Shown: positions 794 to 9,997 of the stretch, piece after piece
How positions within the stretch are numbered: the stretch's first letter is position 1
How the letters are laid out: each line of letters starts with the position of its first letter
Assembly (NCBI GenBank): GCA_016929135.1
Contig: JAFGJK010000013.1
Location: forward strand, 285 to 64,284
Length of the DNA stretch: 64,000 bases
DNA from: Spirochaetota bacterium
GTDB lineage: Bacteria; Spirochaetota; UBA4802; UBA5550
Reading direction: 5' to 3'
Notes under the pieces: generated by a model
Told to the model about the DNA's origin: nothing
What the model saw: only the letters and a program-made list of their open reading frames with translations
The model's database searches: none
Made by a program: the position numbers and the translations under genes

Positions 794-831
794 GGAACAA
801 GCTGTGCCTCTCAGGGAATGAACTGTGCGTA
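794..831 (-). promoter_or_regulatory. LytTR-type direct-repeat box A (two 9-mers, 12-nt spacer), upstream of the lipoprotein gene
   Basis: The minus strand reads tacgcACAGTTCATtccctgagaggcACAGCTTGTtcc. The 9-mers lie at 826-818 and 805-797, a 21-bp period. It matches box B (5090..5127) at 33/38 positions. A TTGACC hexamer (779-774, minus) follows 14 nt downstream, and the lipoprotein ATG lies about 124 nt downstream. Confidence 0.45.
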
Positions 832-920
832 TGGATCTTATTTTCAGGGACTGTGGGAAGTATCGTGAGGGCTCCCTGAGGGCTCTGCCCCCTTTTTATA
901 TAAATCCGAGACAATAGTGA

Positions 921-934
921 GCTTTGACCCCTCT
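921..934 (-). repeat. Left terminal inverted repeat (REP-like) of the transposase island
   Basis: gctttgacccctct is the exact reverse complement of 2009-2022. Confidence 0.8.
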
Positions 935-1000
935 TTTTTTTCATTTCTTGATAACTCAGACGTTTATACTATACAATACATTGATCAGCAGGAGGGACAC

Positions 1001-1591
1001 ATGCCAAGACCATTGCGTAATATTGCACAGGGTTTAACCCATCATACTTATAGCAGATGCCATGGTAAGAGAAATCTCCTCCAGGGAAAATATGGTAGAC
1101 TCTTTTTCATTGAAGCGGTTCGCCAATGCCAGGAAAAGTATGACTTTGCCCTTATAGCTGCTGAAATCGTTGCCAACCATATCCACCTTGTCATCAAAAC
1201 AGACCAAGGCAAACAAACGATCTCCCTTATTATGCAATACATCAAGGCAAGAATCGCGGAAAAGTACAATCGAGCCATGGGTATGACAGGAGCATTCTGG
1301 AATGAACGCTTCGGCTCCACGGTTATTGAGGAGTCAGAAAATCCGGAGGGGTATCTTCTGTGGCTTTTATGGTATATTGGATACAATCCTGTACGAAAGG
1401 GCCTGTCCCGAGATCCACGTTTGAATGATATTGGATTTATAAACTGCTACCTAAATAAAAATCATGAAGCACCAGTAAAGATCACACCACATCATTTCTT
1501 CATAAAACTTGGTGAGACATTCGAGGAGCGTATAAAAAAATTTATATTCTATGAAGATGCCTATCTCAGAAGACTGGCTGTGTATCTATGA
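1001..1591 (+). CDS. IS200-like / REP-associated tyrosine transposase (RAYT, HUH Y1 family)
   Basis: Taken from track ORF 917..1591. I prefer the ATG at 1001 (MPRPLRN), which is preceded by gcaggaggga. Motifs: HUH (IVANHIHLVIKT), FWNERFGSTVIE, and the catalytic Tyr region WYIGYNPVRKGL. These match the Y1_Tnp/RayT pattern (H-u-H ... FWxxRFxxxxI ... YIxxNPVxxGL). Confidence 0.8.
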   Translation: MPRPLRNIAQGLTHHTYSRCHGKRNLLQGKYGRLFFIEAVRQCQEKYDFALIAAEIVANHIHLVIKTDQGKQTISLIMQYIKARIAEKYNRAMGMTGAFWNERFGSTVIEESENPEGYLLWLLWYIGYNPVRKGLSRDPRLNDIGFINCYLNKNHEAPVKITPHHFFIKLGETFEERIKKFIFYEDAYLRRLAVYL

Positions 1592-2040: not shown

Positions 2041-4929
2041 TTATTGCATCTTTTCCCGCAGTGCCTCCAGAAAGGCCTGCCCCACCGGTAATTCGGTGCC
2101 ACCATCGCCGAGGCGTACCCGGTAACGTCCGGTGGGCTGGCGGGAGATCCCCCGGATGAAATCGATATTGACGATGTGGCTTCTGTGCACGCGGATGAAC
2201 AGGTCCGGCGGAAGGCGGTAAACGATATCCTTCATCAGGACCGGCACGTCCGTATCCCCATCAACCGTATGTATCACGGTGTGCTTCGACTGTGCCGTGA
2301 TATGGACGATCTCTCCGAACCTGATGGAGCGGGCCCTCTTCCCGATGCGGACGGTGATGCCCGCCGGGGCCGGTCTCTGTACGTTCCCGAGCTTCAGCAT
2401 CATGCCAACCCGCGCCAGAACCTCCCGCATGATGAAAGGCTTCACGATATAGTCGTTAGCCCCGGCCACGAATGCGGCGTCGATATCTGTCTTCCTGTTC
2501 TTCGCCGTAAGCATCACCACCGGGAGCTCCTTCGGGGACCGGCCGGCCCGGATCCTCCGGCACACCTCGTACCCGGACATGTCCGGCATCATGACGTCCA
2601 GGAGCACCAGATCCACCGGACCCTCCCGCTCCAGGATCTCCAGGGCTGTGACCCCGTCCGGGGCGGTCTTCACTGTGCCCCCCCCGGACTGCAGGCAGTT
2701 CCGGAGTAGGTCGAGATTCACCGGATCGTCGTCCACCACCAGGATGACCGGGGTCCCCTCGAAGAGGCCGTCATCGCCTCCGGAATGATCGGCCGAAACG
2801 GCATCATCCACCTTCCCCTGGATGACCGTTTCCCCCAGGGTAACGTCCGAGAAACCATCCGGAACGGGGAGCGTGAAGTGGAAGACCGAGCCGCCCCCCT
2901 CCCGGGGATCGACGCCGATGGTGCCGCCGTGGAGCTCCACGATCCGCCTGGCGATGGAGAGCCCCAGCCCCGTGCCGGGATAGGCCCGCGTATCACCCCC
3001 CTCTGCCTGCCGGTATGCCTCGAAGATCGTCTCCCGGTACTCCTCGGGAACGCCGATCCCGGTGTCCGATACGCGAACCTCCACCGACCCGCCGTTATCA
3101 TCACCCCCGTGCATGACCCTCGCTGACAGCTCCACCCGCCCGGCATTGGTGAACTTGACGGCGTTCCCCACCAGATTGAAGAGCACCTGCCGTATGCGCT
3201 CTTCGTCAGCCCACACCCTGGGGGTCTCCGTCCCGATGCCATTGACGATCTTCAGGGGCTTCCCCCCCGCCAGGGGGATCGACAGCCGCACCACCGATTC
3301 CCCCAGGGGATGGAGGTCAACCGGACGCAGGTTCAGGCTCAGCCCCTCCTCCTGCATCTTCGCCATGTCCAGCAGGTCGTTCACCATACCGGCAAGGCGG
3401 TGGCCGCTGGAGGAGATGAGGGAGAGATTCTCCAGGGCCTTCGGGGGGAGCCAGCCGGCGGCGCCGTCGATCATCGACTCCGACAGGCCGATCATGCCGT
3501 GGAGCGGGGTTCTGAGCTCGTGGGAGGTGCTGGCAAGAAACTGGTCCTTGAGGCGATCCAGCTTCGTGAGGGACTGGTTCTTCTCCTCCAGGTCCCGGGA
3601 GAGCTCCTCCACCCTCCCGAGGGCCCTGGCAAACCGTCGTGAGATGATCAGGGTGATGATCAGGCAGAAGAGCACTGTGCTGAAATGGATAATGTTGCCG
3701 GTATCGATGATCCACAGGGCGTACAGGATATTGTTGATCGCCCCCACCACCAGCGGTGAAAAGCCCGCAATGAATAGTACGGCGTCCTCCCGCCGGTTTC
3801 TCCAGATCCTGATAAAGACGTACAGACCGTAGAGGATGAAGAGGATGCAGAAGATGAAAAATATGCCGATTATTCTCTCGGAAGCCCTGAATCCCACGAA
3901 AAAAAGCGGCGTGATGAACACGACGGCAAGGACCTGATAGACCCGGAGCACGGCGGTGGAGAACTCCTCGGGGAAGAGCGATTTCATGGTCATGATGCAG
4001 AGGGTCATACCCAGCACCACCGTGGAATAGTCCAGCAGTAAGGGGTTCCCCGGATAGGAGAGGTCGCCGGAGAGGACCGGCGACTGCAGGTTGTAGGTGT
4101 TGACGGCAAAGACAAGGCTGAATAAGCCGATATACAGTGGCGCCTTGTTCTCGCTGCGGAAGAAATAGAGCAGTATGTTGTACATGGAGGCGAAGAGGAG
4201 CAGGCCCACGATGATCATGTCCACCGTGTGTCGACGATGTATTCGCCGCATCACCGCCGCTCCCTCTTCGATACTCGGTGCCACGCCGATGCCGCCCGAT
4301 TCGTAGTCCCGGTTCCACACCTGCAGGAGGAGCTCGTTTTCGCCCTTTTTCAGGGTGAAGAACGAGGTTCTCCTGCTGTTGATGAAGACATAGTCATCCC
4401 TGGTCCTCGGCGCTTCCTCTATCGTTCCCGCGGCGTCCGCCGGCACCCCGTTGATCCAGAGCCGGTAGGCGGAGTAGATACGGGGAAGGGTCAGGATCTG
4501 CCTCCCGGCAACCGCCCCCGCCTGTATCCGCAGTCGGTAGGTCCCCCTCCCCCTGCCGGTCAGGGGGACGCCGCCGATACCGTGCCCCTTCCACAGGCCA
4601 GGCACCGGCAGGTAGCCGCAGCCGCTCCGGGACGCGTTCCCCGCAAAGTCGGCGGGCGCCAAGATCCGGTCACGGCAGAACTCCCACTGCCCCTTAAGGT
4701 TCAGCGCACCGTCGTCTTCGAAGCTCCAGCTCCCCAGGTCCACCAGACCCTTCACCGCAGACGGGGGCTCACTCCCGGCGGCCAAGCCGCTGCTGGCGGT
4801 GCCGCTGCCGCAGGAGAATGCCAGTGCGACGACGCAGAGCAGCGCGGCTGAGAAGAGCAGTATGAGCCTTCCCACTGATCGGTTATTCATCATATTTCCG
4901 GTAGTGTCCCTCAGAACAGGCCGATACAT
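2041..4929 (-). CDS. Fused 7TMR-DISM sensor / histidine kinase / receiver / LytTR DNA-binding protein (paralogue 1)
   Basis: 962-aa track ORF; alternative starts at 4893/4890 (MMNNRS). Domains in order:
- signal/anchor LILLFSAALLCVVALAFSCG
- extracellular 7TMR-DISMED2-like region (VKGLVDLGSWSFEDDGALNLKGQWEFCRDRIL)
- about 7 TM helices
- H-box FLASTSHELRTPLHGMIGLSE
- HATPase boxes FNLVGNAVKFT, DTGIGV, GTGLGLSIARRIVELHGG
- REC (ILVVDDDPVNL, DLVLLDVMMPDMSGYEV, MLTAK)
- C-terminal LytTR (IRFGEIVHITAQSKHTVIHTVDGD, LPPDLFIRVHRSHIVNIDFI, YRVRLGDGGTELPV). Confidence 0.9.
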   Translation of the reverse strand: MYRPVLRDTTGNMMNNRSVGRLILLFSAALLCVVALAFSCGSGTASSGLAAGSEPPSAVKGLVDLGSWSFEDDGALNLKGQWEFCRDRILAPADFAGNASRSGCGYLPVPGLWKGHGIGGVPLTGRGRGTYRLRIQAGAVAGRQILTLPRIYSAYRLWINGVPADAAGTIEEAPRTRDDYVFINSRRTSFFTLKKGENELLLQVWNRDYESGGIGVAPSIEEGAAVMRRIHRRHTVDMIIVGLLLFASMYNILLYFFRSENKAPLYIGLFSLVFAVNTYNLQSPVLSGDLSYPGNPLLLDYSTVVLGMTLCIMTMKSLFPEEFSTAVLRVYQVLAVVFITPLFFVGFRASERIIGIFFIFCILFILYGLYVFIRIWRNRREDAVLFIAGFSPLVVGAINNILYALWIIDTGNIIHFSTVLFCLIITLIISRRFARALGRVEELSRDLEEKNQSLTKLDRLKDQFLASTSHELRTPLHGMIGLSESMIDGAAGWLPPKALENLSLISSSGHRLAGMVNDLLDMAKMQEEGLSLNLRPVDLHPLGESVVRLSIPLAGGKPLKIVNGIGTETPRVWADEERIRQVLFNLVGNAVKFTNAGRVELSARVMHGGDDNGGSVEVRVSDTGIGVPEEYRETIFEAYRQAEGGDTRAYPGTGLGLSIARRIVELHGGTIGVDPREGGGSVFHFTLPVPDGFSDVTLGETVIQGKVDDAVSADHSGGDDGLFEGTPVILVVDDDPVNLDLLRNCLQSGGGTVKTAPDGVTALEILEREGPVDLVLLDVMMPDMSGYEVCRRIRAGRSPKELPVVMLTAKNRKTDIDAAFVAGANDYIVKPFIMREVLARVGMMLKLGNVQRPAPAGITVRIGKRARSIRFGEIVHITAQSKHTVIHTVDGDTDVPVLMKDIVYRLPPDLFIRVHRSHIVNIDFIRGISRQPTGRYRVRLGDGGTELPVGQAFLEALREKMQ

Positions 4930-5089
4930 CTCGATAACCGATTATTACACTCTCTCCACCCAATCACCACTGCCGCTGTGTACGGGCCCCGGATGATCGC
5001 GAAACAGCCTTTCGCTGCGCATTGAGAACACAAGGATAACTGAAATCTAATAAAAAATGAGGGCTTAGTGCCGATGCGTCAGCCGGACG

Positions 5090-5127
5090 GGAATAAGCTG
5101 TGCCTGCAGGGGAATGAACTGTGCGTA
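5090..5127 (-). promoter_or_regulatory. LytTR-type direct-repeat box B, between the two fused kinase genes
   Basis: The minus strand reads tacgcACAGTTCATtcccctgcaggcACAGCTTATtcc: two 9-mers, a 12-nt spacer and a 21-bp period. It ends 4 nt from the stop codon of the upstream paralogue (5132). It lies about 160-200 nt upstream of the possible starts of the downstream paralogue. Confidence 0.45.
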
Positions 5128-5131
5128 AAAC

Positions 5132-7975
5132 TCATATTTTTTTCCGCAGCGACTCCAGGAAGGCCGGCCCCACCGGCAGCTCCGTGTCGTCGTCGTCCCT
5201 GAGGCGCACGCGGTAGCGCCCCGACAGGACATGGGACACGCTGTGGATGTAATCGGCGTTGACGATATGGCTCTTGTGGACCCGCACGAACAGGTCCGGC
5301 GGGAGCCGTTCGATGATCTCCTTCAGCATCACCGGCACCTCGATGTCCTGCTGGACCGTGTGGATTATGATCCTTTTCGAATGCGACGTGATGTAGACGA
5401 TCTCGCCGAACACGATGGAATAGGCCCTGTTCCTGTCGCGGATGGTTATACCCCGGGCGGCAGACCGCCGGACATTCCTGAGCTTCAGCATCGTGCGCAC
5501 CCGCGCCAGTAGCTCGGTGATCCGGAAGGGCTTCACGACGTAATCGTTTGCCCCGGCCGCGAAGGCGGCGTCTATGTCGGCCATCCTGTTCTTCGCCGTG
5601 AGCATGATTACCGGCAGCTCCTCCGGGGACCGCTCGGCCCGGATCCTCCGGCACACCTCGTACCCTGACATGACCGGCATCATGATATCCAGCAACACCA
5701 GGTCGATGGGGCCCTCCCGGTCGATGATCTCCAGGGCGGTAATTCCGTCGGGAGCCGCTTTCACCGTGCATCCCTTGGACTCCAGGTAATTCTGGATTAC
5801 TCTGAGGCTCACCGGGTCGTCGTCCACCGCCAGGAGGGCCGGGCTCCCGTCGAAGTTGCCGTCAGGTTCCGGCATGCCGGCGGCGGCTTCCGCGGGCCCG
5901 TCATCCAGGCTCTCGATGACGACCTCATCGGAGGCCTCAGGAGCCCGCTCGTCAGCCAGGGGGAGCGTAAAGGAGAAGACCGTACCCCCCTCTTTGCGGG
6001 GGGCCACGGCGATGGCGCCGCCGTGGAGCTCAACGATCTGTTTCGCGATTGCCAACCCCAGCCCCGTACCGCCGTAGACGCGCGTGTCCCCCCCGTCCGC
6101 CTGGCGGTAGGTCTCGAAGATCGCCTCCCGGTCCTCCTCCGGCACGCCGATCCCGGTGTCCGACACGCGCACCTCCACCGCACCGGCCGCGTCGTCCTCC
6201 TCTTCGTCACCGCCCACGACCCGCGCCGCCAGCTCCACCTGCCCCGTACTGGTGAACTTGACCGCGTTCCCCACCAGGTTGAAGAGCACCTGCCGTATCC
6301 GCTCCTCGTCGGCAAAAACCCTTGGGGTCCCCTGCCCGATGGCGTTGACGATCTCCAGGGGCTTCCCCCCCGCAAGGGGAATCGACAGCCGCACCACCGT
6401 ATCCCCCAGAATACGCAGGTCCACCGGGCGCAGATTCAGGCTCATCCCCTCCCCCTGCAGCTTCCCCATGTCCAGCAGGTCGTTCACCATGCCGGCCAGG
6501 CGGTGGCCGCTGGAGGAGATGAGGGAGAGGTTCTCTATTGCCTTCGGGGGGAGGCCCCCGGCGGCGCCGTCGATCATCGACTCCGACAGGCCGATCATCC
6601 CGTGGAGCGGCGTTCTGAGCTCGTGGGAGGTGCTGGCCAGGAACTGGTCCTTGAGCCGGTCCAGCTCCGTGAGGGAGAGGTTCTTCTCCTCCAGGTCCCG
6701 GGAGAGCTCCTCCACCTTGCCGAGGGCCCTGGAAAACCGCCGGGAGATGACCATGGTGGAGGTAAAGCAGAGCACCACCATGGCGTACTGGATGACGTTC
6801 CCGGTGTTGATGATCCACAGGGCGTAGAGTACGTTGTTTATCCCCGCGAGAAAGATGGAAACGAAGCCGACGAAAAACAGCAGGGCACCGTCTCTTCGGT
6901 TCTTTATAATCTGTACGAAGACGGACAGACCGTACATAATAAACAGGATGCAGACGATAAAATAAATCTTTATCACGATTTCCGCCGCTCTGAAGTCGAT
7001 AAAAAAAAGAAGAGTGATCAGAGCGGCGGCCGCCGCCTGGAAAAACCGGACAACTCCCATGGAAAAATCGTCCGGGAAGAGCGACTTCATGGTCATGACG
7101 ATCATTGTCATACCAAGGATGACCGTGATATAATTGATCAGGAAGGGGTTCCCGGGATAGGAGAGGCCGCCGGAGAGGATCGGCGACTGGATATTGTAGG
7201 TGTTAACTGCCCACACGATGCTCGTGAATCCGAGATACAGCGGCGACGCGTCCGTCTTCCGGGAAAAGAAGAAGAGGATGTTGTAGACGGAGGCGAAGAG
7301 CAGCAGGCCCACGACGATCATGTTGATCGAATGCCCCTGCAGGCCCCGCCGCATGACCCTCTCTCTATCGTCCAGCTGCAGGGGGCTGTCGATGCCCCCC
7401 GATTCGTACTCGCGGTTGGAGACCTGGAAGACCACCTCGTTCCTCCCCTCCTTCAGGGTGAAGGAGGGCTGCCGTATATTGTGAACGAAGATGTAATACT
7501 CCCCGGCACGGGCTGCCCCGTCCACACTCCCGATCGTATCCACCAGCGTCCCGTTGATCCAGAGCCGGTAGGCCGAATAGATCCGGTGTATGCCGAGGGT
7601 TGCAGCCTTTGCAGTGCCGTCGCTCAACAGTGTCAGCCGGTACGTGGCCCGACCCCTTCCGGGGAAACCGGCGCCGCCGGATTTCCGTTCCGTCCATAGT
7701 CCCGGGACCTCCATGTACCCGCAGCCCCCCCGTCCGGCCCCCTTCGCAAAATCCGCGGGCTCCAGCAGGCGGTCCCAGCAGAATTCCCACTCCCCGTCCA
7801 GGTTCACCGACCCGTCCCGTTCGAAGCTCCAGCCCTTGAGGTCCAGGACGCCCCTGACGGCAACGGGCCGCCGATCCGAGGAGCCGCGGTTGCATGCCGT
7901 CAATGCCGGAACGCACAGGCAGACTGCCATGGACAGCGCGGCGATGGTTCCATATGCCTTGCGGGACGCTCTCAT
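5132..7975 (-). CDS. Fused 7TMR-DISM sensor / histidine kinase / receiver / LytTR DNA-binding protein (paralogue 2)
   Basis: Track ORF 5132..8122. I prefer the ATG at 7975 (MRASRKAYGTIAALSMAVCLCVPALTAC, signal/lipobox-like); the upstream extension merely translates repeat box C. The domain order matches paralogue 1:
- VRGVLDLKGWSFERDGSVNLDGEWEFCWDRLL
- 7 TM helices
- FLASTSHELRTPLHGMIGLSE
- GTGLGLAIAKQIVELHGG
- LLAVDDDPVSL, DLVLLDIMMPVMSGYEV
- LytTR (IVFGEIVYITSHSKRIIIHTVQQD, LPPDLFVRVHKSHIVNADYI, YRVRLRDDDDTELPV)
The kinase core is roughly 85-90% identical to paralogue 1 by eye over about 165 aa. The sensor region is more diverged. Confidence 0.9.
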   Translation of the reverse strand: MRASRKAYGTIAALSMAVCLCVPALTACNRGSSDRRPVAVRGVLDLKGWSFERDGSVNLDGEWEFCWDRLLEPADFAKGAGRGGCGYMEVPGLWTERKSGGAGFPGRGRATYRLTLLSDGTAKAATLGIHRIYSAYRLWINGTLVDTIGSVDGAARAGEYYIFVHNIRQPSFTLKEGRNEVVFQVSNREYESGGIDSPLQLDDRERVMRRGLQGHSINMIVVGLLLFASVYNILFFFSRKTDASPLYLGFTSIVWAVNTYNIQSPILSGGLSYPGNPFLINYITVILGMTMIVMTMKSLFPDDFSMGVVRFFQAAAAALITLLFFIDFRAAEIVIKIYFIVCILFIMYGLSVFVQIIKNRRDGALLFFVGFVSIFLAGINNVLYALWIINTGNVIQYAMVVLCFTSTMVISRRFSRALGKVEELSRDLEEKNLSLTELDRLKDQFLASTSHELRTPLHGMIGLSESMIDGAAGGLPPKAIENLSLISSSGHRLAGMVNDLLDMGKLQGEGMSLNLRPVDLRILGDTVVRLSIPLAGGKPLEIVNAIGQGTPRVFADEERIRQVLFNLVGNAVKFTSTGQVELAARVVGGDEEEDDAAGAVEVRVSDTGIGVPEEDREAIFETYRQADGGDTRVYGGTGLGLAIAKQIVELHGGAIAVAPRKEGGTVFSFTLPLADERAPEASDEVVIESLDDGPAEAAAGMPEPDGNFDGSPALLAVDDDPVSLRVIQNYLESKGCTVKAAPDGITALEIIDREGPIDLVLLDIMMPVMSGYEVCRRIRAERSPEELPVIMLTAKNRMADIDAAFAAGANDYVVKPFRITELLARVRTMLKLRNVRRSAARGITIRDRNRAYSIVFGEIVYITSHSKRIIIHTVQQDIEVPVMLKEIIERLPPDLFVRVHKSHIVNADYIHSVSHVLSGRYRVRLRDDDDTELPVGPAFLESLRKKI

Positions 7976-8087: not shown

Positions 8088-8125
8088 GGCGCACAGTTCA
8101 TTCCCTTCGACGCACAGTTCATTCC
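8088..8125 (+). promoter_or_regulatory. LytTR-type direct-repeat box C in the divergent region between paralogue 2 and the cyclase operon
   Basis: The plus strand reads ggcgcACAGTTCATtcccttcgacgcACAGTTCATtcc, with identical 9-mers at 8093-8101 and 8114-8122 and a 12-nt spacer. The ACAGTT reading direction points to the plus-strand promoter at 8154. A third consensus-fitting 9-mer, ACAGTTGAT (8157-8165), overlaps that promoter's -35/spacer. Confidence 0.5.
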
Positions 8126-8153
8126 GGAGAAGGCATATTTTAGTCGAACTCTG

Positions 8154-8182
8154 TTGACAGTTGATTAATCGAATTCTAATAT
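8154..8182 (+). promoter_or_regulatory. Sigma70-type promoter for the cyclase operon
   Basis: TTGACA (8154-8159), a 17-nt spacer (gttgattaatcgaattc), then TAATAT (8177-8182). Confidence 0.5.
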
Positions 8183-8422
8183 ACAGATGATACATACACC
8201 GATGCATCGATGTAACAGCATCCCGCTCCGTGTATTCGGTCGGGAAGGATTTGTGGAATACGATATCATTCACTACAGGATACCCATATCAATTCACCAG
8301 TCAAACATCTGATCGGAGAGAAGATAGGCGGTATCCGCATCTTCCCCATAGCCACGAAGATCGTCCTCATCTTCGTCTTTTTCATTCTGCTGTCAAACTT
8401 CACGTCCCACTACATCAGCCTC

Positions 8423-9997
8423 ATGCTCTACCGTGGCGAGATGATCATGATGATGAAGCAGCACCTGGTGAAGGACCTGAGGGACATCTACACCTTCGCC
8501 AAGACCCAGCACGAGATATCCCTCTCCGGGGGGACCCCGCAGGCCTGCCTCAAGGCGATCGAGGAGAAGTCCATGCTGGAATTCAAGAACAGGAATTCGC
8601 TCCTCCTGGGAATCCGGCAGGACGGGAGCATCCTCTTCCAGTCGTCTCGGGGCAAGCGCTTGGATGCCTTCCCGGACAGGGACGCCATGGACCTCTTCAA
8701 CAAAAACTTCAGGAAAAACGTCAAGGAGGGCTTCACCACCTTCACGCTCGAGGGGAAGCAGTTTTTCGGCGTCTACAAGTACAACATGGACTGGAACGCC
8801 TACTTCCTGCGTGCCGAGGAGTTCAACGAGTTCTACGCGCGCTCCAGGGTGATTTTCACCACCATATCCCTGGTGATCGGCGTCATCACGCTCCTCTGCG
8901 CGGTGGCCGGCGTCCTCATCCTCAGGCACGTGCTCAAATACATCGGGCAGATGACCCAGGCCATCATCGCCATGACCAGGGACAAGCAGATGGGCATCCT
9001 GGACCTCAAGGACGCACAGACCGATGACGTGACCTTCCTGGGCATGTCCTTCAACTCCCTGTCCAACACCATCAGCAATCTGCTGCAGATATTCCAGAAG
9101 TTCACCAACAGGGACATCGTGGTGAAGGCCTACGAGGAGCGCGAGATACGCCTCGAGGGGGCCAAGCACGAGCTTACCTGCCTCTTTTCGGACATCAAGA
9201 GCTTCACCAACATGACCGAGGTGCTGGGGACCGAGATCATCACCCTCCTGAACCTCCACTACACGCAGGTGATCAACATCATCCTGGGGCACGACGGGAT
9301 CATCGGCTCGATCATCGGCGACGCCCTCCTGGCGGTGTACGGCGTCTTCCCCGGCGATTCCGCGCGGCAGAAGTCCTACCAGGCGGTGATCACCGGGTAC
9401 CAGATCCACGATGTGGCAAGGCAGATCCGGAGCCAGATGATCGAGATGAGGGAGCGGATTATCGCTGAGAAGGGATCGCTCACCCCCGAGGAGGAGAGGG
9501 TCTACGAGGCGGTGCTGATCGACGTGGGCGTGGGGATCGACGGCGGCATGGTCTTCTACGGCAACATCGGAAGCCACGAGCGAATGACCAACACCGTCAT
9601 CGGCGACAACGTCAACTCCGCGTCGCGGCTCGAGGGCCTCAACCGGATCTACAAGATACCGGTGATCTGCTCTGAATACATCAAGCTGGACATCGAGAGG
9701 AACGTTCCCGAGACGAAGCTGAAATTCACCGAGATCGACACGGTCCGCGTAAAGGGGAAGACCGAGGGGAAGAAGATATACTGGCCCATCCCGAAGGAGA
9801 ATATGACCAAGGACATGCAGCGGCAGCTCGCGATATTCAGCGAGGGGCTGGCGTGGTACTACGCGGGAAAATGGAAGAGCGCCCGCAGGTCCTTCGAGCG
9901 CTGTACCCTCCCCATGGCGGAGGTCTTCCGCACTCGGACCGCCTCCGCGGAGTGTCCGAAGAACTGGGCGGGCATCTGGGCCATGGATTCCAAGTAA
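8423..9997 (+). CDS. Membrane HAMP / class III adenylate-guanylate cyclase (true start probably upstream of 8423)
   Basis: Cyclase motifs: LTCLFSDIKSFTNMTE, IGDALLAVYG, GIDGGMVFYGNIGS, IGDNVNSASRLEG. TM helix VIFTTISLVIGVITLLCAVAGVLIL is followed by a HAMP-like linker. The frame stays open upstream to 8216 and encodes a TM helix (IFPIATKIVLIFVFFILLSNF) with no ATG/GTG/TTG; see findings. Confidence 0.85.
   Translation: MLYRGEMIMMMKQHLVKDLRDIYTFAKTQHEISLSGGTPQACLKAIEEKSMLEFKNRNSLLLGIRQDGSILFQSSRGKRLDAFPDRDAMDLFNKNFRKNVKEGFTTFTLEGKQFFGVYKYNMDWNAYFLRAEEFNEFYARSRVIFTTISLVIGVITLLCAVAGVLILRHVLKYIGQMTQAIIAMTRDKQMGILDLKDAQTDDVTFLGMSFNSLSNTISNLLQIFQKFTNRDIVVKAYEEREIRLEGAKHELTCLFSDIKSFTNMTEVLGTEIITLLNLHYTQVINIILGHDGIIGSIIGDALLAVYGVFPGDSARQKSYQAVITGYQIHDVARQIRSQMIEMRERIIAEKGSLTPEEERVYEAVLIDVGVGIDGGMVFYGNIGSHERMTNTVIGDNVNSASRLEGLNRIYKIPVICSEYIKLDIERNVPETKLKFTEIDTVRVKGKTEGKKIYWPIPKENMTKDMQRQLAIFSEGLAWYYAGKWKSARRSFERCTLPMAEVFRTRTASAECPKNWAGIWAMDSK

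Follow-up and report, generated by a model that had tools for sequence, protein, structure and literature searches.

Judged from its sequence, box B is a real, evolutionarily conserved LytTR-type site that most likely turns on the next gene. It lies on the minus strand of the window (the whole 64-kb stretch of DNA that was analyzed), between two paralogous genes for fused LytTR sensor kinases: gene 2 (5132–7975, minus strand, 947 aa) and, downstream of the box, gene 1 (2041–4893, minus strand, 950 aa). The two products share the same architecture (7TMR-DISM_7TM, HisKA, HATPase_c, REC and LytTR) and are 64% identical. A cyclase operon, a lipoprotein gene and a transposase island make up the surroundings.

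Organization of Box B

Read directly from the window, the minus strand from 5127 to 5090 is tacgcACAGTTCATtcccctgcaggcACAGCTTATtcc; with its upstream context, it reads ...aaaaatatgag ttttacgcACAGTTCATtcccctgcaggcACAGCTTATtcc. The TGA stop codon of gene 2 occupies positions 5134–5132, the sequence tacgc starts at 5127, 4 nt past this stop, and the distal 9-mer begins 9 nt past the TGA. This distal half-site, ACAGTTCAT (5114–5122, minus strand), is preceded by ACGC, followed by TCC and identical to the LytTR consensus at 9/9 positions. It is separated from the proximal half-site, ACAGCTTAT (5093–5101, minus strand), by the 12-nt spacer tcccctgcaggc (5102–5113, minus strand), for which both the sequence and the module alignment described below give a TCC-N7-GC frame. 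The proximal half-site is also followed by TCC and matches the consensus at 8/9 positions, with C for T at position 5. The preliminary description had reported a 9+12+9 geometry on the minus strand, a perfect distal 9-mer, a proximal one with GCT for GTT, and a start 4 nt behind the stop codon of paralogue 2, all of which proved exact (5122–5114, 5113–5102 and 5101–5093).

An A7 tract (5137–5143, minus strand) precedes the distal 9-mer at a distance of exactly 21 nt and also provides the codons for KK at the end of the gene 2 product (...SLRKKI, then the stop). No third half-site was found at box B: the next register downstream has 1/9 matches, and the upstream register is the A-tract. Ten nucleotides past the proximal half-site, a weak -35 hexamer is predicted, CTGACG (5077–5082, minus strand; 4/6), followed after a 17-nt spacer by a predicted -10 hexamer, CATTTT (5054–5059, minus strand; 3/6); the same CATTTT is found after box A and after the box on contig C3. 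Both hexamers are weak, as expected of an activator-dependent promoter, and they were not called by a generic promoter scan. Transcription is predicted to start at ~5047, which would center the proximal site near -50 and the distal one near -71. An alternative promoter register, TCGGCA-16-TATTAG, with a predicted start near 5040, is equally possible.

The first ATG of the gene 1 frame lies at 4929, 164 nt from box B, although a start at 4893 (MMNNRSVGRLILLF..., MMNNRS..., with a signal peptide and a lipobox-like AFSC), 200 nt from the box, is more likely. Both distances agree with the ~160–200 nt proposed earlier, and the claimed orientation toward paralogue 1 is correct; the predicted -35/-10 pair is located downstream at the distance typical of the family.

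The published rule for LytTR sites describes 9-bp direct repeats, [TA][AC][CA]GTTN[AG][TG], 12–13 bp apart and just upstream of the -35 (PMC5600425). By sequence, box B has the consensus repeats, the 12-nt spacing and a co-oriented -35/-10 of such an operator, in a genome that encodes a LytTR regulator. A Bacteroidota-type -33/-7 promoter, read from TAGATTTC, was also considered and dropped, given the conserved TTGACA-17-TATAAT geometry and the placement of the genome among the spirochaetes.

Conservation of the Box and of Its Predicted Promoter

A search of the window for the 9+12+9 pattern with at most three mismatches yielded four matches, compared to 0.04 expected, and none of 100 shuffles reached four. 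These matches are box A, box B, box C and a degenerate third register of box C. With a stricter pattern, the entire assembly (4.39 Mb, 81.5% complete) contained five matches, compared to zero for the reversed control; over 122 genomes of the order, the pattern was found 44 times, versus a single control match. A chance similarity could be argued from the single 9-mers, which, with one mismatch allowed, are not enriched (11 vs. 6.4 expected). However, the excess of paired sites in the window, the assembly and the order makes the probability of such a coincidence negligible. Among metagenome contigs, the exact box B sequence had no match, and the generic module was found in one 1.1-kb contig.

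An ungapped alignment was made of 30 copies, no two of them identical, that came from this genome and from further genera and families of a single order of Spirochaetota. The resulting module consists of an A-tract; ACGC-ACAGTTCAT-TCC, N7, GC-ACnGTTCAT-TCC; 10 nt; a -35; 17 nt; and a -10. Counted from the first base of the distal 9-mer, the A-tract covers columns -20 to -15, with a nearly invariant A, and ACGC covers columns -4 to -1; after the distal ACAGTTCAT-TCC, the consensus reads gA.GC-ACnGTTcaT-TCC. The half-sites occur as the variants ACAGTTCAT, ACCGTTCAT, GCCGTTCAT and ACAGTTTGT, and the 12-nt spacing is invariant in 30/30 homologous copies. The sequence TTGAC is present 10 nt past the proximal 9-mer in 22 of the 30, with a TAtt.T hexamer 17 nt further, and several copies are textbook promoters, like the TTGACA-17-TATAAT of genome G013. 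As the A-tract, the ACGC, the second TCC, the -35 and the -10 were all absent from the search pattern, their conservation is independent evidence. The A-tract is, moreover, kept in 11 of the 13 copies without an intact kinase gene directly upstream.

The boxes are also linked to kinase genes throughout the order. Seventeen matches begin, like box B, 10–13 nt past the last LytTR-matched residue, on the same strand, of ~950-aa proteins with the 7TMR-DISM/HisKA/HATPase/REC/LytTR architecture; five others resemble box C in lying upstream of a kinase gene in divergent orientation. A fused LytTR kinase is encoded in 23 of the 26 genomes with a box and in 11 of the 96 without (Fisher p ~1e-13, not corrected for phylogeny); the three box genomes that have no such kinase each contain a single match with one mismatch. 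The strict pattern overlooked two kinase loci that nevertheless have diverged boxes and TTGACA or TTGACC behind the stop codon. In G008, GCCGTTCAT-12-GCCGTTCAT and then TTGACA follow the kinase stop, and in G027, the box is found 78 nt past it. The 9-mers, their 12-nt spacing and the position behind the kinase stop, for which a comparison of orthologous loci had been proposed, are thus kept in many genera. Orthologous loci that retain the genes and lose the element were not the general picture. The exceptions are locus L143, where the stop codon of the closest relative of gene 2 is not followed by a box, and two kinases that have divergent boxes and lack a 3' one.

Two further features were noticed at boxes of other genomes. 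On contig C1 of G013 (L135/L119, 3239150–3239260), the kinase frame has no stop before the box and crosses both half-sites and the -35 (…ALKKKLKLSTVHSFRSTTHSRTIDK, then the stop), so that the operator overlaps the coding sequence. In G037, each of three boxes (L116, L120 and L122) has a GC hairpin with a T-run ~10–20 nt past its -10, e.g., gagggccccttattaaggcctttttat, which might represent an attenuator or a short RNA driven by the box.

The Fused LytTR Sensor Kinases

The LytTR domains of genes 1 and 2 score 69–70 bits against PF04397 and are C-terminal, behind the REC domain. No HTH_18/AraC output was matched in either protein; the output domain is LytTR (PF04397). Compared to PDB sequences, the LytTR domain found only 3d6w (E = 4e-8), and not AgrA. 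The assembly encodes four such paralogues: the two of the window, one on contig C3 and one on C27. All five LytTR domains found in it sit in large fused proteins, and no stand-alone LytTR regulator was seen in this 81.5%-complete assembly, the missing part of which may encode one. The fifth domain, on contig C64 (12882–13172, minus strand), lies at the terminus of an open frame of 1576 aa; similarly sized proteins (1591–1596 aa) occur in G084, G074 and G061, so that the order contains a second type of giant LytTR fusion.

Identity among the paralogues is unevenly distributed. It amounts to 41–50% in the periplasmic part, 36–58% in the 7TM part and 52–67% in LytTR, versus 70–92% in HisKA, HATPase and REC: the sensors have diverged and the signalling core has been kept. 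Between genes 1 and 2, the HisKA (dimerization/phospho-acceptor) domains are 92.5% identical, far above the rest of the proteins, and heterodimers or cross-phosphorylation between the two products are conceivable.

The full architecture is common to ~84 protein clusters (at 90% identity), with generic annotations only. Those kinase homologues that bear NCBI names are labelled Spirochaetota or Spirochaetes bacterium, and the spirochaete flagellar sheath family FlaA has three matches in the assembly and none in 14 control genomes. An exact look-up of the gene 2 sequence found it not to be on record, and back-translated patterns of gene 1 (generic kinase/REC motifs) retrieved only unrelated hybrid kinases from genome contigs.

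Other Boxes and Their Putative Target Genes

Box A (797–826, minus strand), a paralogous copy of box B, precedes a Flg_new lipoprotein gene (670–2, minus strand). Box C (8093–8143, plus strand) is composed of two perfect units and a degenerate third one (ATATTTTAG, 8135–8143) and points at the cyclase operon. It is followed by a consensus TTGACA-17-TAATAT (8154–8182), whose -35 lies 10 nt past the third unit, as is typical of the family. The three boxes had been described as one layout along the minus strand; this is correct for boxes A and B, but box C (8093–8122 for the two perfect units) belongs to the plus strand. As it faces the cyclase operon, gene 2 has no box of its own in activating orientation. 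In box C, with its three 21-bp registers, a perfect unit occupies the usual slot of the A-tract; the orthologous cyclase promoters of G025, G077 and L143 have the ordinary layout, an A-tract and two units. Furthermore, the codons for the first TM helix of the cyclase precede the first ATG/GTG/TTG (8423) and belong to an open frame without a canonical start (8216–8425, plus strand), and cyclase orthologues start ~25–35 residues before the helix (e.g., MTTMRGIRKVVNLILGSTIGKFRIFPIATK... in G054).

Three groups of downstream genes were recognized in the order. The first is the transmembrane adenylate/guanylate cyclase operon, behind box C and in G054, G062, G013, G077, G025 and L143. The second comprises large secreted proteins or lipoproteins with Flg_new, IPT/TIG, NHL or FecR domains, together with a small family that has no Pfam match and is read as outer-membrane-like. 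The third, represented in the window and in G119, is a further kinase paralogue. The fifth box of the genome (contig C16, 9400–10772; L107) is located behind an 88-codon LytTR relic (...ITELPVGSAFLETLCKKTVH, then the stop). It would drive a 267-aa protein without a Pfam match, a homologue of which is also the predicted box target in G106 (L132). No agr-like pheromone or processing genes (AgrD/AgrB-like or ComC/ComAB-like) were present among the scanned ORFs, in a search that was not exhaustive for small peptides. The predicted regulon, a cyclic-nucleotide cyclase operon and large surface repeat proteins, would tie an external signal to second-messenger signalling and to the remodelling of the cell surface.

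Duplication History and Mobile DNA

Boxes A and B can be aligned over ~140 nt, from 5 nt before the distal 9-mer, which includes the box, the promoter and the early leader (score of 87, compared to 25 ± 4 for shuffles). Genes 1 and 2 are sisters in a tree of 75 proteins (SH-aLRT 97). From this box homology and the sister relation of the genes, it follows that the duplicated unit was the gene with its box and its promoter, in agreement with the earlier suggestion of a gene-plus-box unit. The leader of gene 1 has no homology with the region upstream of gene 2 (score of 31, compared to 30 ± 6 for shuffles). In G119, which belongs to a different genus, a kinase-box-kinase-box array is present, with a kinase pair 78% identical (next best, 62%); this array is an independent repeat of the same duplication event. 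Its junction lies right after the -35, and the copy between the kinases has a poor -10. The gene-plus-operator cassette has thus been tandem-duplicated at least two times independently, providing an example of how a regulatory cascade can originate in one step.

Between boxes A and B, the 9-mers are identical at 17/18 positions, the spacer at 8/12 and the flanks at roughly 55–60%, and the proteins are 64% identical; the half-sites are, hence, better kept than their surroundings. This retention, compared to the divergence of the proteins and the flanks, points to selection on the sites.

An AT-rich island (860–2040) with an IS200/Y1-type transposase (917–1591, plus strand) and REP-like inverted repeats separates the stop of gene 1 from box A. 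Within the segment 835–2040, the ~35 nt upstream of box A resemble a decayed kinase 3' end (cttcccacagtccctgaaaataag vs. ccttcctggagtcgctgcggaaaaaaatatgag); gene 1 itself keeps an intact, slightly different C-terminus (FLEALREKMQ, then the stop). At locus L145 (6700–7623), a toxin-antitoxin pair (PIN_10/DUF5615 and DUF433) is found between a kinase stop with a lone distal half-site and a complete box, and ~45 nt (ctgagaaaaaaaat..atgacgcAC.GTTCATtccccgg) are duplicated on either side of the pair. This suggests insertions at the box region, or insertions that duplicate it. Mobile DNA that adjoins boxes in this way, at the transposase island between gene 1 and box A and at L145 with its ~45-nt duplication, could mean that the sequence is mainly a recombination or insertion hotspot, similar to an attachment site, and not an operator. 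Such a function is very improbable in view of the LytTR consensus and spacing, the linkage to LytTR genes and the fixed register with promoters; moreover, most copies have no integrase with them.

Proposed Regulatory Role of Box B

Box B is probably the operator of an activator-dependent, sigma-70-type promoter, by which fused LytTR proteins would raise the expression of paralogue 1. Gene 2, and probably its paralogues too, encodes a membrane-anchored two-component system in one polypeptide, from the periplasmic/7TM sensor to LytTR. A signal at this sensor would cause autophosphorylation, and the phosphate would be passed to the REC domain of the same protein. Two LytTR domains would then occupy both 9-mers, the starts of which are 21 bp apart, i.e., two helical turns, and the bound domains would help the RNA polymerase to use the weak CTGACG and CATTTT hexamers, with transcription proceeding from near 5047 into gene 1. 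As gene 1 has the same output domain, box B would make a small cascade or a positive loop. Since gene 2 lacks a box in activating orientation, the simplest wiring is one in which the level of sensor 1 is increased by sensor 2 and also by its own action. Sensor 1 may in turn serve box A, with its lipoprotein, and other boxes, and the paralogues may all share boxes A, B and C and those on C3 and C16. We infer the binding, the activation, the transcription start and the choice among the paralogues from the DNA sequence.

No terminator was found between gene 2 and gene 1, so that gene 1 could be transcribed by read-through, independently of box B. The box might then be inherited with the gene-plus-box copy as a mere passenger, which may bind a protein and have little regulatory effect, gene 1 being expressed mainly from read-through transcripts. 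The weakness of the -35 and -10 is consistent with this, as are the loss of the -10 by the inter-kinase box of G119 at the duplication junction and the nearest relative of gene 2, without a 3' box. However, the half-sites (17/18 compared to box A) and the A-tract have outlasted the surrounding intergenic DNA, next to proteins that are 64% identical, and the hexamers match the quality of those at box A and at the C3 box, the sole visible promoters of their lipoprotein genes. For these reasons, such a passenger box is considered unlikely.

The effect of box B could also be negative: a bound protein would block the polymerases arriving from gene 2 and, in this way, insulate or repress gene 1. The box does stand in the path of any read-through transcript, and for AgrA, the repression of one promoter through a site located downstream of it has been reported (PMC4227749). 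Elsewhere, however, the module precedes a consensus TTGACA-17-TATAAT at a fixed 10 nt and is often part of the sole promoter, a geometry of activation that renders blocking quite improbable. An attenuator or riboswitch in the leader was rejected: no Rfam family was identified downstream of box B and no stable fold was predicted, the 150-nt leader folding worse than shuffles (z = +2.0); the leader of box A is unremarkable (z = +0.6).

The operator keeps a fixed distance of 9–13 nt from the stop codon of the membrane-tethered regulator to which it belongs; this position is possibly, though this is rather doubtful, a functional requirement beyond inheritance. Co-translational membrane insertion would hold the DNA behind the gene near the new LytTR domains, and the in-phase A-tract would be part of the required DNA architecture. 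The gene, its 3' operator and the promoter would, if this were true, form a duplicable and self-contained cassette that solves the target search of a 7TM transcription factor.

Relation to Known LytTR Systems

LytTR operators are classical components of quorum sensing in Gram-positive bacteria. Relatives of box B are the AgrA boxes of the Staphylococcus aureus agr P2/P3 promoters and the ComE, PlnC/PlnD, VirR and FsrA sites. With the AgrA class, it shares a pair of imperfect 9-bp direct repeats that have an ACAGTT core, are spaced by 12 bp and precede a sub-optimal -35/-10, as well as a REC-LytTR regulator and a box located before a gene of the regulator's own kind, which allows auto-amplification (PMC5600425, PMC4227749). 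Unlike in this class, the LytTR domain of the box B family forms the C-terminal end of a 7TM sensor kinase, which tethers the regulator to the membrane, the box directly follows the stop codon of the regulator gene, and a conserved A-tract is found one 21-bp register upstream. The promoter spacer of box B has the optimal 17 nt, compared to 18–20 in the AgrA class, the proximal site is near -50 instead of near -60, and peptide-pheromone genes are absent from the vicinity.

The Bacteroides HTCS, or 'hybrid transmembrane transcription regulators', are likewise single membrane-bound polypeptides that unite a sensor with HisKA, HATPase, REC and a DNA-binding domain; they regulate genes next to their own and tend to multiply into sets of paralogues (PMC10269533). 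The output of genes 1 and 2 is, however, LytTR and not an AraC-type helix-turn-helix, and their sensor is 7TMR-DISM instead of a periplasmic beta-propeller/Y_Y_Y. Their host is a member of the Spirochaetota, and a cyclase operon and surface repeat proteins take the place of the polysaccharide-utilization loci.

Within the literature searched, the kinases of genes 1 and 2 belong to an undescribed family, with sensor, kinase, receiver and LytTR in one membrane protein and the operator behind its own stop codon. The module (~75 nt, with six conserved parts) is precise enough for regulon prediction in metagenome-assembled genomes and for heterologous reporter tests.

In the literature searched, the sole LytTR system described from spirochaetes is AtcS/AtcR of Treponema denticola, a two-component system with LytTR-type promoter elements (PMC12070737 and its reference 28). 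AtcS and AtcR are separate proteins, whereas the kinase family of box B is fused, multi-copy and found in uncultured lineages. According to the same paper, spirochaetes have no LytTR protein other than AtcR (PMC12070737), a statement that the fused LytTR kinase family contradicts for uncultured spirochaete lineages.
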